Of a stretch of DNA of 32,000 bases, positions 18,076-23,217 are shown in pieces (the first letter of the stretch is position 1; each line of letters starts with the position of its first letter). The stretch spans positions 3,600,001 to 3,632,000 of the forward strand of contig CP178758.1 in NCBI GenBank assembly GCA_047651235.1. Reading direction: 5' to 3'. A program made the translations under genes and the position numbers. The notes beneath the pieces are model-generated. The model did not search any database and was not told the DNA's origin. It saw only the letters and a program-made list of their open reading frames with translations. The DNA comes from Candidatus Electrothrix yaqonensis. Its GTDB lineage: Bacteria > Desulfobacterota > Desulfobulbia > Desulfobulbales > Desulfobulbaceae.

Positions 18076-19368
18076 TTATGCTGCAGCCAATTTTGCCAGG
18101 CAAGCCTCTGCTGCGGCAAGGGCCTTTTCCAGGTGCGTCCGGTCATGCGCAGCCGAGATAAAAGCCGCCTCGAACTGGGACGGTGCCAGCCAGATACCCT
18201 GTGCCAGCATCTCCCGGAAATAGCGGCCGTAGCGTTCTGTATCCGCCTGCATGGCCGAATCAAAATCCGTCACCGGTTTATCCATAAAAAAGCAGGTCAT
18301 CATGGAGCCGATCCGATTCAGCACGGTCGGTACCGAAGCCTTGGCACTGATTGCGGCCAGTTGTCCGGCAAACCAATCGCTTTTCTCCTCAAGCTCTTTG
18401 TAGAAGCCGGGCTGCCGCACGGTTTTGAGCATGGCCAGTCCGGCAGCCATAGCCAGAGGATTGCCGGACAGAGTGCCAGCCTGATACACCGGTCCGTCCG
18501 GGGCGATCTGATCCATGATTTCCTTTTTACCGCCGTAAGCGCCGACAGGCAGGCCGCCACCGATGATCTTGCCGAGACAGGTGAGATCCGGCAGAATACC
18601 GAAGCGTTCTTGGGCCCCGCCCAAAGCCAGCCGGAAGCCGGTGATCACCTCGTCAAAAATGAGGACAATGTCTAATTCCGCAGTCAGCTCACGCAGTTTC
18701 TGGAGAAAGGCCATATCCGGGACAATCACGCCCATATTTCCGGCAACCGGCTCGATGATCACGCAGGCGATATCCAGTTCGTCATCCCGTAGCGTCTTTT
18801 CCAGCACTTCAATATTGTTGTAGGGGATGGACAGGGTATTTTTGACAATATCTTCCGGCACACCGGGGCTGCCCGGAATCCCCAGAGTAGCCACGCCGGA
18901 ACCGGCCTTGACCAGAAAGGAGTCCGCATGACCGTGGTAGCAGCCGTCAAACTTGAGCACCATATTCCGACCGGTATAGCCTCGGGCCAGACGGATGGCG
19001 CTCATGGTCGCCTCAGTGCCGGAGTTAACAAAACGTACCTTTTCAATGGACGGCACAGAGTCGCAGACCAGTTCGGCCAGCTCCACCTCAAGCGCAGTGG
19101 GTGCGCCAAAACTGGTCCCATTAGGCAGAGCTTCCTGAATCGCCCGCACGACCTCCAGATGGCCGTGTCCAAGGATCATCGGCCCCCAGGAGGCGACAAA
19201 ATCGATAAACTTATTGCCGTCAGCATCGGTGATTGTACAGCCTTCAGCCTTGGCAACAAACAGAGGATCACAGCCCACGGATTTGCAGGCCCGTACAGGC
19301 GAATTCACGCCTCCGGGAAGGAATCGGCATGCCTGGTGAAATAATGTAGCGGAATGTGTTGTGTGCAT
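18076..19368 (-). CDS. hemL: Glutamate-1-semialdehyde 2,1-aminomutase
   Basis: The 430-aa ORF contains LFHQACRFLPGGVNSPVRACKSVG...FIDFVASWGPMILGHGH and IFDEVITGFR. The PLP lysine context is CLGKIIGGGLPVGAYGG. Confidence 0.95.
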   Translation of the reverse strand: MHTTHSATLFHQACRFLPGGVNSPVRACKSVGCDPLFVAKAEGCTITDADGNKFIDFVASWGPMILGHGHLEVVRAIQEALPNGTSFGAPTALEVELAELVCDSVPSIEKVRFVNSGTEATMSAIRLARGYTGRNMVLKFDGCYHGHADSFLVKAGSGVATLGIPGSPGVPEDIVKNTLSIPYNNIEVLEKTLRDDELDIACVIIEPVAGNMGVIVPDMAFLQKLRELTAELDIVLIFDEVITGFRLALGGAQERFGILPDLTCLGKIIGGGLPVGAYGGKKEIMDQIAPDGPVYQAGTLSGNPLAMAAGLAMLKTVRQPGFYKELEEKSDWFAGQLAAISAKASVPTVLNRIGSMMTCFFMDKPVTDFDSAMQADTERYGRYFREMLAQGIWLAPSQFEAAFISAAHDRTHLEKALAAAEACLAKLAAA

Positions 19369-19451
19369 AACGATGTGAAAGTCATCAGTTCAGGATAGGT
19401 TCGGAATCAATAAGCCGACGACTATACCATGCGTTTTTTTTCTTTGCAAAC

Positions 19452-19466
19452 AGGAGTTACGCGGTT
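19452..19466. repeat. Solo copy (14 of 15 nt) of the terminal-repeat motif of the MITE-like element at 29863..29980
   Basis: aggagttacgcGgtt at 19452-19466 compares with aggagttacgcAgtt at 29865-29879. Both lie upstream of minus-strand gene starts (hemL and dapB). Confidence 0.4.
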
Positions 19467-19602
19467 AGTAAAAATCAGGCAATATGGCAGACATAAAAAA
19501 GAAGCTCAATTACTTCCCCCTGCATTATCGACATCGGGACGGAAGGTAGGGATGTAAGGAGGATGTGCTCGCGGAGGGGAACAAGAAGGGATGATCAGCA
19601 GC

Positions 19603-19631
19603 TTGCACTCTTTCCGGCTATCGTGTATTTT
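19603..19631 (+). promoter_or_regulatory. Candidate sigma70-type promoter for the low-GC cassette
   Basis: TTGCAC (19603-19608), a 17-nt spacer, then TATTTT (19626-19631), about 150 nt upstream of the ATG at 19779. This is a consensus match only. Confidence 0.25.
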
Positions 19632-19778
19632 ATATATTTTCCGATGTTAAAAAGAAATATCGTATCTTCCCATGAAATCGGGATTTGGCAAACAAGGTAG
19701 TATTATACGCGAGTCTATCTCATGATTTTTTGCATATACACCACCATTCAGCCCCCTTTGTCAAAAAGGTGAAGTGCT

Positions 19779-20528
19779 ATGCTTCCAGATGATCTGATTG
19801 TAGGATTTATTATATACGCATTGACGTTTCGGTTGGCTATCATTGCAGCGGGTATTGTGAGTATTGTCTTTGGATACAAGCTGTTTGCGCTCGGCGTGAT
19901 GGGCGGAGAGAAAACCCGTATTAACGCTCAGGCAGGGCAGATTAAACTGACACTTGCCAATGCCGGGCCCGGCTTGGGTTTTGCACTGTTCGGTGTACTC
20001 ATTATCGCGGTTATGCTTTTTCAAGGTAATCCAGAGATCGTCCTGAAGGATGTTCAGCTCGTTATAAAGGATTTACAGCAAGGCGGTACTCCGTCCGAGG
20101 TGCATATCGGAAGCGCAGCATTTAAGGGGGGGAACGATAATAAGATAAGTCAAGCGGTGCAGCGTTTCAATCAGGCGTTGAATGAAGGGAAGCAGTTGCA
20201 ACATGCTGGAGATATCGAAGCGGCCATAACAGTTTATAACAAGGTGCTGTCCGACTCAGAGGCCCCCTTTATACTCAATGAATTAGCTTGGCTCTATCGG
20301 GAACAGCAGCAACTTGACGAGGCTCTGGTGTTGGCACATGCAGCAACGACAGTTGATCAGAAAGACTCCAATAGCTTCGACACGCTAGCACTGATTTTGC
20401 TGGATCGGAAGGAGTTTGAAGCTGCGGAACACGCTGCACAGACTGCCTTGAAGCTTGATCCTGCTAACCAGGATTATAAGGAAACCCTGAATAAAGTACA
20501 AGCTGCTAAGAATAGTACAACGCTATGA
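19779..20528 (+). CDS. Membrane-anchored TPR-repeat protein (cassette gene 1)
   Basis: The N-terminal hydrophobic segments are IVGFIIYALTFRLAIIAAGIVSIVFGYKLFAL and GPGLGFALFGVLIIAVMLF. About three TPR-like repeats follow (GDIEAAITVYNKVL..., LNELAWLYREQQQLDEALVLAHAA..., FDTLALILLDRKEFEAAEHAAQTALKLDP). The stop overlaps the next start (ATGA at 20525-20528). Confidence 0.7.
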   Translation: MLPDDLIVGFIIYALTFRLAIIAAGIVSIVFGYKLFALGVMGGEKTRINAQAGQIKLTLANAGPGLGFALFGVLIIAVMLFQGNPEIVLKDVQLVIKDLQQGGTPSEVHIGSAAFKGGNDNKISQAVQRFNQALNEGKQLQHAGDIEAAITVYNKVLSDSEAPFILNELAWLYREQQQLDEALVLAHAATTVDQKDSNSFDTLALILLDRKEFEAAEHAAQTALKLDPANQDYKETLNKVQAAKNSTTL

Positions 20529-21712
20529 TTAAAATAGTGAATCGCTGCGTTATTATAGCACTATTGCTCCTAATTGAGACGAATGCCTGGGGCGTTAATC
20601 TTTCTGGTTATTTTGGTAACAGCTACGCTGTTGTGGTCGGTATTCATGAATATCAGGATAGGAACACTTGGCCGGATGTGACGTATGCCATGGAAGACGC
20701 AAATGATATGGTCGCATTTCTTTTGAGGCAGGGCTTCAGAAAAAATAATGTAAAGTCGTTCATTAATGACCGAGCGACAAGAGAAAGTATTATATCCTAT
20801 TTGGCAGACGATCTAGCACGGACATTGAAAAATAATGACAGAGTCGTCTTTTATTTCTCGGGGCATGGAGAAACTGAGCAGATTGGCTTAAATGACTTCG
20901 GCTATATCATACCCTATGATGGCAAGAAAGGACGTCCTTCAACTTGGATTTCTATGGAGAAGCTTCAAGAGCTTGCAGCTAAACTTGGCAATGCCCGCCA
21001 TCAGCTGTTTATTTTGGACTCCTGTTTTGGTGGTCTGATTGAGCCGAAGGGATCGGGTATTTCATCAGAGATGCCTTTTTATCTTGACGATTTGACAAAA
21101 CGTCGAGTACGCCTGTACATGACTGCCGGTGGTGCCAATGAGAAGGCCCCTATGCGTAGTAGCTTTTCTAAGAATAGCCATTATACAGCTAATCTCCTCA
21201 GAGGGTTGGATGGCCTTGCGGATAAGAATTATGACGGGATTGTAACTACGAGTGAACTTGAAGGGTATCTTCTGACAGCAGCTAGTATAAGAGGAGTAAT
21301 TATGCCGAGATGGGGAACTCTTGACGGTCACGAGAATGGGGAGTTTGTTTTTAGCTCTCCGAAAACTGCACGGAACATAGTTCGCAATTCAAGTCCGGTG
21401 TCCGGCCCCACCAAAGGGAATGTCAAGAATAGCTATGAGGTGGAGAGGTTACGAGCAGAGGTAGAGCGATTGGAGAAATTACGAGCAGCAGAAAGATCGA
21501 AACCACAACCACAATTATATACAAAATCTTTATCAGTAAGAAGCACATTAACTAAAGAGGAGCAAAATCAGATCGATTATGAATGGCAGCATGATATTCA
21601 AGGTGCTGCCAGCTCTTATACTGTTGAACAATTTCTCGAACGATACCCTGTAGGAGGTCATGTTCCAGCTGCACGGCAGAAACTGAACGAACTACGTGCG
21701 CGTGGTCAATAA
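20525..21712 (+). CDS. Exported caspase-like cysteine protease (peptidase C14 fold) with a coiled-coil/helical C-terminal region (cassette gene 2)
   Basis: A signal-peptide-like N-terminus is present (MIKIVNRCVIIALLLLIETNA|WG). The C14 hallmark motifs are YAVVVGIHEY, the catalytic His in VVFYFSGHGE and the catalytic Cys in LFILDSCFGG. The C-terminus has RLRAEVERLEKLRAAE and YTVEQFLERYPVGGHVPAARQKLNEL. Confidence 0.75.
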   Translation: MIKIVNRCVIIALLLLIETNAWGVNLSGYFGNSYAVVVGIHEYQDRNTWPDVTYAMEDANDMVAFLLRQGFRKNNVKSFINDRATRESIISYLADDLARTLKNNDRVVFYFSGHGETEQIGLNDFGYIIPYDGKKGRPSTWISMEKLQELAAKLGNARHQLFILDSCFGGLIEPKGSGISSEMPFYLDDLTKRRVRLYMTAGGANEKAPMRSSFSKNSHYTANLLRGLDGLADKNYDGIVTTSELEGYLLTAASIRGVIMPRWGTLDGHENGEFVFSSPKTARNIVRNSSPVSGPTKGNVKNSYEVERLRAEVERLEKLRAAERSKPQPQLYTKSLSVRSTLTKEEQNQIDYEWQHDIQGAASSYTVEQFLERYPVGGHVPAARQKLNELRARGQ

Positions 21713-21755
21713 GTGTGTTTTTACGAGATAGGCATATATGCCTTTGGAGCTTGAT

Positions 21756-22409
21756 ATGAATATAATAAAGATTGGAATTAGTGTAGCTGCATGCGTTGCG
21801 CTCAGTGGATGTTCAGACCTTTTACTACTCAGGCCGGAGGTTAAAGGTTGCTACCCGGTGGATAGTCTTAGCATAGAGGAACGGGTTAGTCTCCAAGTCG
21901 GGAATGGCAATCCGATACTTCTGGCTGGTGATAAGGAATTTGTATGTGCCTGCTATCATCCTGGTTCCCTTGTCGCAGCCGATGAAGGGGATCATCTGGA
22001 CAGAGCTGACGAAGATGATAACTTGGACAGAGCCGACGAAAATGATAACTTGGACAGAGCTGACGAAGGAGATTATTTGGTCAAAGCGGATGAAGGCGAT
22101 CGTTTGGATAGAGCTAGCGAAGGAGATCGTCTGGACAAAGCCGGTGAAGGGGACCGTTTGGACAGAGCCAGTGAAGGAGATCGTCTTGACAAAGCTGGTG
22201 AGGGCGATCGTTTGGACAAGGCTGGTGAAGGAGATCAGCTGGATAAAGCCGATGAAGCAGATTGGCTTTCAAAAGACTCTACCGAACTCTCTTGCCGTAT
22301 TGTATCAGGATGTCCTGGTTTTCAACTGATTGGTTATGAACCGAAACAGATCACAGTTCGTACCGAGGAAGGAAGAAAGTCTTTTTCAACGAACTGTATC
22401 ACTTGGTAA
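21756..22409 (+). CDS. Lipoprotein with 11 tandem acidic nonapeptide repeats flanked by Cys-containing modules (cassette gene 3)
   Basis: The start at 21756 has GGAG 6 nt upstream; the track start at 21738 is less likely. The lipobox is in MNIIKIGISVAACVALSG|CS. The repeats run ADEGDHLDR ADEDDNLDR ADENDNLDR ADEGDYLVK ADEGDRLDR ASEGDRLDK AGEGDRLDR ASEGDRLDK AGEGDRLDK AGEGDQLDK ADEADWLSK. Confidence 0.7.
   Translation: MNIIKIGISVAACVALSGCSDLLLLRPEVKGCYPVDSLSIEERVSLQVGNGNPILLAGDKEFVCACYHPGSLVAADEGDHLDRADEDDNLDRADENDNLDRADEGDYLVKADEGDRLDRASEGDRLDKAGEGDRLDRASEGDRLDKAGEGDRLDKAGEGDQLDKADEADWLSKDSTELSCRIVSGCPGFQLIGYEPKQITVRTEEGRKSFSTNCITW
21978..22274. repeat. 27-bp tandem repeat, 11 copies, in frame
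   Basis: Units of gcY gRt gaa ggN gat cNt ctg gac aRa type run from 21978 to 22274 (11 x 27 = 297 nt). The central copies are the most similar to one another. Confidence 0.9.
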
Positions 22410-22434
22410 AATTTATTGAAAAACGAGGATTGAT

Positions 22435-23217
22435 ATGGAAAAGTTATTGACAGCCTGCTTTCTTTCATTACCCCTTTTGATGGCTTGTGGGGCCATGCAT
22501 CCTTTAGAGAAAGGGGGGGATACGAAACGAGCGTTGAATACCGTCGAGTTGCAGTATCCCAACGTTACATTTACATTTCCGTCCACCAGAAAGACGTACC
22601 GGTCCGGTGAATCTTTTCCCCCGCCGAAAACTATTGATTGTTCCAACCTCACCCTGAAATCAGACTCATTCAAAGATGCTATTGAGGCAGGAGCACTCAT
22701 AGTGAGGATTAAGACCCCACGACAAGTAAAGCAGATTGTTAAGGATAAAAAGGGCAAAGAAATTGTTGAGCGCGTTAAGATAAAACCCGTTTACGGCGGA
22801 GTACTGGCATTGTGTAAAGTTTCTCCTAATGCGACTGGGCCGGATTCCCGAAGCTACCGGATTCGCGATCTTGATGACCGCCTTATTAAGGGCCAGAATG
22901 GCTTTATTTCTGTTATAGGGGCAAACCTGTCACAGGGTAATCAGCTACCCTCACTGCAAGATTTGGGAAAAGTACTCAATATCGACACAGGGCTTTCCTC
23001 TAAATCCATCAATATAGGCAGGACTAATTATTCTTGGATGCTCTGGCTGACAGACCGAACATCCACCTTTACCGATTATGAAGGTGAGATGATAATGCGT
23101 AAGCGCAAGGAGAAAGCAGCTAAAGCTAGGGCAGCAGCTAAGGATAGAGCGGATCAAGCTAGAGCTGAAGCTAAAGCAAGAGAAGAAGCAAGAAAAGCCA
23201 AGTCTGCTTCTAAATAA
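22435..23217 (+). CDS. Lipoprotein-like hypothetical protein with a Lys/Ala/Arg/Glu-rich helical C-terminal tail (cassette gene 4)
   Basis: MEKLLTACFLSLPLLMA|CGAM carries a lipobox-like LMAC, in which Met at -2 is atypical. A globular part of about 200 aa has no domain I recognise. The tail is RKRKEKAAKARAAAKDRADQARAEAKAREEARKAKSASK. Confidence 0.6.
   Translation: MEKLLTACFLSLPLLMACGAMHPLEKGGDTKRALNTVELQYPNVTFTFPSTRKTYRSGESFPPPKTIDCSNLTLKSDSFKDAIEAGALIVRIKTPRQVKQIVKDKKGKEIVERVKIKPVYGGVLALCKVSPNATGPDSRSYRIRDLDDRLIKGQNGFISVIGANLSQGNQLPSLQDLGKVLNIDTGLSSKSINIGRTNYSWMLWLTDRTSTFTDYEGEMIMRKRKEKAAKARAAAKDRADQARAEAKAREEARKAKSASK

Follow-up and report, generated by a model that had tools for sequence, protein, structure and literature searches.

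When an exported bacterial protein has nonapeptide repeats, these are taken almost as a matter of course for RTX calcium-binding beta-rolls. RTX repeats follow the consensus X-(L/I/F)-X-G-G-X-G-(N/D)-D, are exported by type I secretion via an uncleaved C-terminal signal, and as apo-blocks need counter-ions to fold (PMC3034196). A nine-residue array is also found in the uncharacterised YdhT of E. coli (NF007410), which carries about a dozen repeats of the form x-R-[IV]-x-x-x-G-x-x (L010, 4748-5560, strain K-12); Gly-rich tandem repeats characterise the bacterial collagen-like proteins, and genes for caspase-family Peptidase_C14 proteins occur in prokaryotic envelope cassettes. Here we describe the nonapeptide array of a predicted lipoprotein, P0001, encoded in a 32,000-nucleotide stretch of the genome of the cable bacterium Candidatus Electrothrix yaqonensis YB6 (contig CP178758.1, positions 3,600,001 to 3,632,000; hereafter the window). 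We find that the family to which this protein belongs shares the RTX-like period and a Leu-x-Gly skeleton, yet differs in its conserved chemistry, which centers on an invariant Glu, in its export route, and in having a fixed partner, a second lipoprotein that we call lipo2. These features are not represented in Pfam, NCBIfam or PDB, and on this evidence the array is of a type not described before.

The nonapeptide array in the window

Cutting the array into 27-mers gives exactly 11 in-frame units of 27 nucleotides (Table 1), which read ADEGDHLDR, ADEDDNLDR, ADENDNLDR, ADEGDYLVK, ADEGDRLDR and ASEGDRLDK for units 1-6, and AGEGDRLDR, ASEGDRLDK, AGEGDRLDK, AGEGDQLDK and ADEADWLSK for units 7-11. 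Tandem Repeats Finder reports a period of 27 over 21977-22262 (10.6 copies, score 194) as well as a period of 54 (score 275), and repeat finding places the starts of successive units 27 nucleotides apart throughout. The open reading frame (ORF), Tandem Repeats Finder and the cutting into 27-mers agree on the 11 in-frame repeats and the strict nine-residue period that a preliminary description of this DNA had reported for a lipoprotein. With 38 Asp and Glu and 15 Lys and Arg among its 99 residues, the array has a net charge of -23.

The same description took the central repeats to be nearly identical in DNA, and from this suggested recent expansion or contraction; neither claim survives closer inspection of the units. 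Unit-versus-unit DNA identity is 52-93% with a mean of 69%, and 93% is reached only by units 2 and 3. Codon differences among units 5-10 comprise 55 synonymous and 24 non-synonymous changes, and across the array the conserved Ala, Leu and Lys/Arg positions are each spelled by three codons. Recent expansion is contradicted both by this synonymous divergence and by two relatives, P0002 (88% identical) and P0003 (69% identical), which also have 11 units and whose first three units are positionally orthologous. Given the low identity between units, the synonymous differences and the 11 units of both relatives, the window array, as read from its codons, is old and selected, and not recently expanded.

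The start codon, ATG at 21756, is preceded 6 nucleotides upstream by GGAG (21746-21749) and encodes the same Met that begins the homologues; the gene is single-copy in the YB6 genome. The N-terminus, MNIIKIGISVAACVALSGC, comprises a basic n-region and a hydrophobic h-region followed by a lipobox, which has the form [LVI][ASTVI][GAS]C of bacterial lipoproteins that are substrates of signal peptidase II (SPase II), with lipidation predicted from sequence. The lipobox Cys is kept in close homologues, while the signal peptide of some distant members is a plain one. Not counting the lipobox Cys, the array is flanked by three Cys on either side, as the preliminary description had noted: C32, C64 and C66 before it, and C180, C186 and C214 after it. 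Among 28 aligned family members, C64, C66 and C180 are invariant, and C32 and G188 are nearly so.

We also observe that, read in a different frame, the repeats give rise to long spurious ORFs (window 21904-22329; L022 4230-5000), and that in the JGI contig L022 the gene caller used the wrong frame and split the repeat gene. The repeat family is probably under-annotated in public data.

Conservation of the repeat unit across the family

The family numbers at least 30 homologues, which come from cable bacteria, from the sulfur bacterium Candidatus Venteria ishoeyi (Thiotrichaceae) and from metagenome contigs. A word-based protein search returned nine relatives, all of them cable-bacterium-like and including Ca. 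Electrothrix scaldis and Ca. Electronema aureum; a profile search of genome contigs with alignment A1 found a match only in Electronema aureum. An exhaustive profile search gave 7,207 matches, and the best 148 of these, which were examined, include about 25 short proteins with the whole architecture (94-265 residues, mostly 170-265, with a few short fragments). Giant proteins among the same 148 were rejected as family members: 117 are RTX proteins matched via their repeats, and three others, the eukaryotic DENN protein P0070, the PBP-TPR protein P0075 and one further protein, have unrelated nine-residue linkers. Reading neighbouring loci added further members (L003, L004, L005, L009, L018, L021 and L022). 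Sequence and profile searches of Pfam, NCBIfam, PDB and PADLOC revealed no family for either the repeat protein or lipo2, and literature searches found no paper mentioning these genes.

Members have in common a signal peptide (in most cases one that includes a lipobox), an N module of the form C-x(~30)-C-x-C that includes G-x-P-[IL]-[IL], the nonapeptide array, and a C module of the form C-x5-C-G-F...C. We define the family by a split six-Cys domain with a GxxExxxLx array and by an adjoining lipo2 gene, and the window protein has both. To derive a consensus, units were anchored on a Glu and an aliphatic residue four positions later, so that both stand at 100% by construction; the Glu columns are independently invariant, or nearly so, in alignments A1-A3. 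With proteins equally weighted, the consensus is G1 (84%), A2 (55%), [G/T/D/S]3, E4, x5, x6, [R/H/K/N]7, L/V/I8 and [A/V/G]9. The spacing between units is nine residues in nearly every case (279 units, 29 proteins), and insertions or deletions within units are very rare. A loss of periodicity in homologues had been set beforehand as grounds for dismissing the array as disordered filler; the periodicity is kept, so the array is not arbitrary filler.

The positions that are kept are only Glu4, the aliphatic residue 8 and, in most units, Gly1; all others have turned over fully between lineages, with units as different as ADEGDRLDK, ADERASLTK, GAGERDRLA, GAGEEGHLA, GIGEKGGVT, GSGEDGRVV, GDTENRRLA and GDTEDHHVK. 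The window clade is unusual in having Lys/Arg at position 1 where the family has Gly, and the Gly-Asp pair that recalls RTX is specific to this clade. Copy number ranges from 2-3 units (P0076) up to 14. Five loci (L002, L003, L004, L005 and L007) contain units that are 100% identical in DNA, and these arrays are recently homogenised. The array of L009 has a mean unit identity of 57% in nucleotides and retains Gly1, Glu4 and Leu8 in all ten units, with Gly1 and Leu8 each using four different synonymous codons. Since these residues persist despite synonymous codon turnover in an old array, L009 shows, at the level of codon usage, that Gly1, Glu4 and Leu8 are kept by selection and are not a legacy of duplication.

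The distant member P0144 (L013, 420-1127) is built from the unit GDTEDHHVK and has 21 His in its array, which suggests that this His-rich variant may bind transition metals.

Comparison with RTX, YdhT and collagen-like repeats

RTX blocks and the family are alike in their nine-residue period, in a single aliphatic residue per unit with a Gly two residues later, and in their acidic character, and disorder without counter-ions is a plausible further common feature. A local hmmsearch with the family profile, which matches RTX proteins at ~7-22 bits per ~100 residues, places Leu8 on U8 and Gly1 on G1 of the RTX blocks. The invariant Glu then falls on RTX Gly4, position 2 is Ala in the family and Gly in RTX, and the counterpart of RTX D6 is Asp in only 12% of family units; the G-G-x-G-(N/D)-D turn of RTX is absent. 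Written in the RTX register, the window unit is R-L-D-[KR]-A-[GSD]-E-G-D, in which only U8 and D6 coincide. RTX repeats are C-terminal and leave the cell by type I secretion, whereas the family array is central, between the Cys modules, in proteins exported by Sec with a lipobox, and the last Cys module of the window protein ends in Trp.

Model searches give the same picture. At E<=1, Pfam HemolysinCabind missed the window protein and hit one of 28 members, at E 0.73; NCBIfam RTX_toxin reached 8-19 bits against a cut-off of 1000, with matches, all far below threshold, in 12 of 28 members; and a PDB profile search returned no RTX chain at E<=1. The window protein has neither the RTX consensus motif, nor a match to the curated models, nor type I export with C-terminal repeats. 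On the strength of the motif, the model and structure searches and the lipoprotein signal, RTX membership is rejected, in agreement with the earlier judgement that the motif is not canonical RTX; the shared Leu-x-Gly-every-nine skeleton remains as a resemblance.

YdhT resembles the family in its nine-residue period and in a Gly and an aliphatic residue at fixed spacing, and one member, P0130 (unit GAGEDARVG), matches NF007410 through its repeats (E 2e-9, 37 bits against a cut-off of 300), while the window protein has no NF007410 match. The YdhT sequence read here differs in having no N-terminal signal peptide or lipobox, no family Cys modules and no invariant Glu, and its gene lies in the operon ydhYVWXUT. 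Collagen-like is the UniRef name of the Electronema homologue, both being Gly-rich tandem repeats, and Pfam Collagen matches one of 28 members (E 7e-4). The Electronema repeat has Gly at positions 1, 3, 6 and 7 of the 9-mer with no G-X-Y triplet register, and the window array has one Gly per nine residues; we rejected a collagen reading on both counts. A reading as EF-hand or thrombospondin-like DxDxDG repeats was also rejected, as only window units 2-3 are similar and the similarity is not conserved.

Predicted structure

The AlphaFold2 model of the window protein, computed from a 10-sequence alignment, is confident at both ends, with predicted local distance difference test (pLDDT) values of 75-86 for residues 30-69 and 82-86 for the C-terminal module (residues 176-217); both ends are beta-rich. 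The predicted template modelling score is 0.41 with confident residues making up ~38% of the chain, which suggests that the N and C ends pack as one unit. For the Electronema homologue, modelled from 15 aligned sequences, strands of 3-5 residues (mostly 4) recur every nine residues along the whole array. Foldseek against PDB returned nothing significant for either model (E>1); for the Electronema model, beta-helix or beta-roll proteins together with SH3 domains predominate among the non-significant top neighbours. These models suggest a regular fold of the array and do not establish it. The preliminary description had looked to AlphaFold for a beta-roll, solenoid or helical stalk; for the array, it yields low-confidence strands at nine-residue intervals in the homologue.

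Gene cassette and lipo2

The repeat gene is the third of four in the window cassette, in the order TPR membrane protein, caspase, repeat lipoprotein, lipo2 (Table 1). The gene upstream, to which the preliminary description had assigned a caspase-type or metacaspase-type protease, matches Peptidase_C14 (caspase family), and the encoded protein has a signal peptide and an intact His (FSGHGE)/Cys (DSCFGG) dyad.

Table 1. The repeat lipoprotein gene, its segments and the adjoining cassette genes, in window coordinates (aa, amino acids)
Feature	Position	Strand	Basis
Repeat lipoprotein gene P0001, 217 aa, stop included	21756..22409	+	ORF list, translation, full-length homologues
Signal peptide with lipobox L-S-G-C (aa 16-19), Cys19 predicted lipidated	21756..21812	+	Sequence reading
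N-terminal module, aa 20-74: C32, GNPILL motif, C64-x-C66	21813..21977	+	Alignment, AlphaFold2
Array, 11 nonapeptide units, aa 75-173	21978..22274	+	Tandem Repeats Finder, 27-mer cutting, family consensus
C-terminal module, aa 174-217: C180, C186, GFQL motif, C214, terminal Trp	22275..22406	+	Alignment, AlphaFold2
Membrane protein with TPR repeats, first cassette gene	19779..20528	+	Pfam TPR_2 7e-12
Exported Peptidase_C14 (caspase-family) protein	20525..21712	+	Pfam E 5e-14; PADLOC generic caspase model
Caspase C-terminal tail, aa 338-395	21536..21709	+	53-59% identity to L004/L005 Trypsin_2+PEGA C-termini
lipo2 (P0011), second lipoprotein, 260 aa	22435..23217	+	Homologue adjoins repeat gene in 13/13 contexts

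The full gene order is kept in L007 (Electronema), L008 and L022, and at least the caspase, the repeat protein and lipo2 are together in L002, L003 and L009. Homologues of the TPR membrane protein precede the caspase in L007 and L008, and TPR ORFs do likewise in L017 and L022. The adjacency of lipo2 to the repeat gene, which holds in all 13 contexts, extends to the distant loci L012, L013, L018 and L021. An exported protease lies directly upstream of the repeat gene in 9 of the 13; in two of these nine, from Ca. Venteria ishoeyi (Gammaproteobacteria, Thiotrichaceae) and from metagenome contig L005, a Trypsin_2+PEGA protein replaces the caspase. The four distant members have no protease where their flanks are readable, L013 and L018 being seen in part: lipo2 lies upstream in L012, with no protease, and two lipo2 copies lie downstream in L013, whose contig begins 420 nucleotides upstream of the repeat gene. 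The cassette is like the prokaryotic Peptidase_C14 envelope cassettes in its upstream gene, but the repeat lipoprotein itself is no protease, and the protease varies with the lineage: the caspase can be replaced by trypsin-PEGA or be absent.

The proteases share a C-terminal tail module of ~50 residues, ..EEQxQAxYEWQxDIxxSxSSxTVEQFLxxYPxGSHVPxAxxKLxELRAxG, which is common to the cable-bacterium C14 caspases and the Trypsin_2+PEGA proteases (L004 3167-4264; L005 3137-4246) and in every case lies immediately before the gene of the repeat lipoprotein; it looks as if one protease fold had been exchanged for another while the adaptor tail stayed the same. The window's genome has seven C14 genes, several in open frames of ~1000-1280 residues, and the tail is present on only this one. 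Two fusions were found: a single ORF of the Electrothrix genus (L017, 388-2028) joins a caspase domain to a lipo2 domain, and another (L019, 1162-2073) joins a tail-like motif to lipo2 without an adjoining repeat gene.

lipo2 has no Pfam or PDB match. Its copy in L021 carries an SH3_3 domain, and that in L018 an extra C-terminal PDZ-like stretch (sequence reading only). The window lipo2 ends in a basic Ala/Lys/Arg tail (last ~45 codons) that is present only in some Electrothrix copies and absent from Electronema, from L008, which has an acidic array (net -13), from Venteria and from the distant members. We rejected a pairing of this tail with the acidic array, as the two do not co-vary.

Models for the array

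Within a strict nine-residue frame the Glu and the aliphatic residue do not vary, and both survive the turnover of other positions and of synonymous codons, which speaks for a defined periodic structure of the array or for a binding function repeated along it. We favour, tentatively and at somewhat less than an even chance, a reading in which cations stabilise the array as a Glu-ladder rod or spacer that sits within a six-Cys split domain and acts with lipo2. Sec and SPase II would export the lipoprotein, and its N and C segments would assemble a small beta-rich core whose six Cys are probably disulfide-bonded. The array would interrupt this core as a regular rod-like repeat, and a copy number of 2-3 to 14 is what one would expect if a fixed core held an insertion of variable length. 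One short strand would come from each unit, and the aliphatic residue 8 would be buried, much as in a beta-roll or solenoid. At a net charge of -23 the array would need counter-ions to fold, like apo-RTX blocks, and the Glu4 carboxylates may form a ladder that is neutralised or stabilised by divalent cations. The resulting rod may serve as a length-setting spacer or as the polyanionic surface of an envelope complex with lipo2; in cable bacteria and Thiotrichaceae this pair would be coupled to the exported protease via the conserved C-terminal tail of the latter.

Several observations weigh against a folded rod. The model of the window protein has pLDDT <40 over residues 70-175, and the strands of the Electronema homologue reach only 41-50, which is low confidence. 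Of 28 arrays, only 5-6 clearly show the 18-residue super-period that a two-sided roll would be expected to have, the 54-nucleotide period of the window being a mild case, and we rejected this super-period as general support for such a roll. The low hydrophobicity and high charge of the array also fit intrinsic disorder, P0070 and P0075 (in the latter between the PBP and TPR domains) have GxxExxxL nine-residue arrays in obvious linkers, and the searches yielded no structural or sequence relative of known function for the repeat protein. Such features would suit a disordered polyanionic tether or entropic spacer that joins the halves of the Cys domain, or else a string of motifs that folds on binding a partner, lipo2 or another; here solubility, flexibility or a role as a recurring docking motif would account for the persistence of the G/E/L pattern. 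We regard this as possible but less likely. It sits well with a single aliphatic residue per unit, with the wide variation in copy number (2 to 14) and with fast concerted turnover, which has left fully identical units in several lineages. A pure spacer, however, needs no Glu/aliphatic pair that is invariant at a spacing of 4 across phyla, nor would it be expected to keep these residues through synonymous turnover with so few insertions or deletions in its units; the regular strands modelled for the Electronema homologue, a weak point, also speak for order.

We consider it unlikely that the array serves the upstream protease as a multi-site substrate, pro-peptide or decoy and is cut once per unit, after Asp, Lys/Arg or Glu, with release of nonapeptides or a ladder. 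The protease link proposed in the preliminary description remains plausible, given the protease directly upstream in 9 of 13 contexts. Cleavage has in its favour that the association survives the swap of protease fold, that the proteases share a tail that in this genome is restricted to this cassette, and that every unit offers an invariant Glu and most a basic residue. The fixed cleavage sites that had been read from regularly spaced Asp and Lys/Arg are, by contrast, not conserved in homologues, even where the array is linked to a caspase, with units such as GIGEKGGVT (Electronema), GAGEEGHLA, GASETGALA and GAGEVAHLA (L022: Arg in 2/11 units, no Lys). The same Glu/Leu pattern occurs with lipo2 and no protease nearby (L012, L021), and the gene fusions point to lipo2, and not the repeat protein, as the partner of the protease. 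A genuine, if divergent, RTX calcium-binding beta-roll would explain the nonapeptide period, the coincidence of window Asp6 and Leu8 with RTX D6 and U8, the subthreshold RTX_toxin matches and the many giant RTX proteins recovered by the family profile; with G2 and G4 replaced by Ala and an invariant Glu, D6 kept so rarely, the curated models and PDB chains unmatched, and an N-terminal lipoprotein signal in place of a C-terminal type I signal, we judge it highly improbable.

Carried further, the Glu-ladder rod could represent a Glu-based second class of nonapeptide beta-roll or solenoid, exported as a lipoprotein via Sec and folded by divalent cations, in which an invariant Glu stands in for the Gly4/Asp6 chemistry of RTX, copy number sets the length of the rod, a disulfide-stapled split domain clamps its base, and lipo2 and the protease tail dock on it and so position an envelope protease in filamentous sulfur bacteria, the whole having moved between Thermodesulfobacteriota and Gammaproteobacteria; as a complete scheme this is doubtful. 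If the array folds, it would provide a new metal-dependent repeat scaffold, and a handle on an uncharacterised envelope module of two unrelated groups of filamentous sulfur-oxidising sediment bacteria, in both of which the module is wired to exported caspase-type or trypsin-type proteases.

Distribution and probable horizontal transfer

The module is rare and patchily distributed: of 14 genomes of the genus, 4 contain lipo2; elsewhere in the order one further family has it, and 400 additional genomes sampled from the whole phylum yielded no copy. Since lipo2, which accompanies the repeat gene in every context seen, occurs in so few genomes of the genus, the module does not belong to the core machinery of conduction in cable bacteria. 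The Venteria contig and the window's genome encode ribosomal protein L20 sequences that are 59% identical and lipo2 proteins that are 52% identical; with L20 at only 59%, the Venteria contig is, by this measure, not a cable-bacterium contaminant. The G+C content of the cassette is 42-49%, compared with 51-58% in its flanks (window 19300-23200). This low G+C content, the presence in a minority of Electrothrix genomes and the ~50% identity to a gammaproteobacterial cassette indicate that the cassette probably moved horizontally, as an accessory module.

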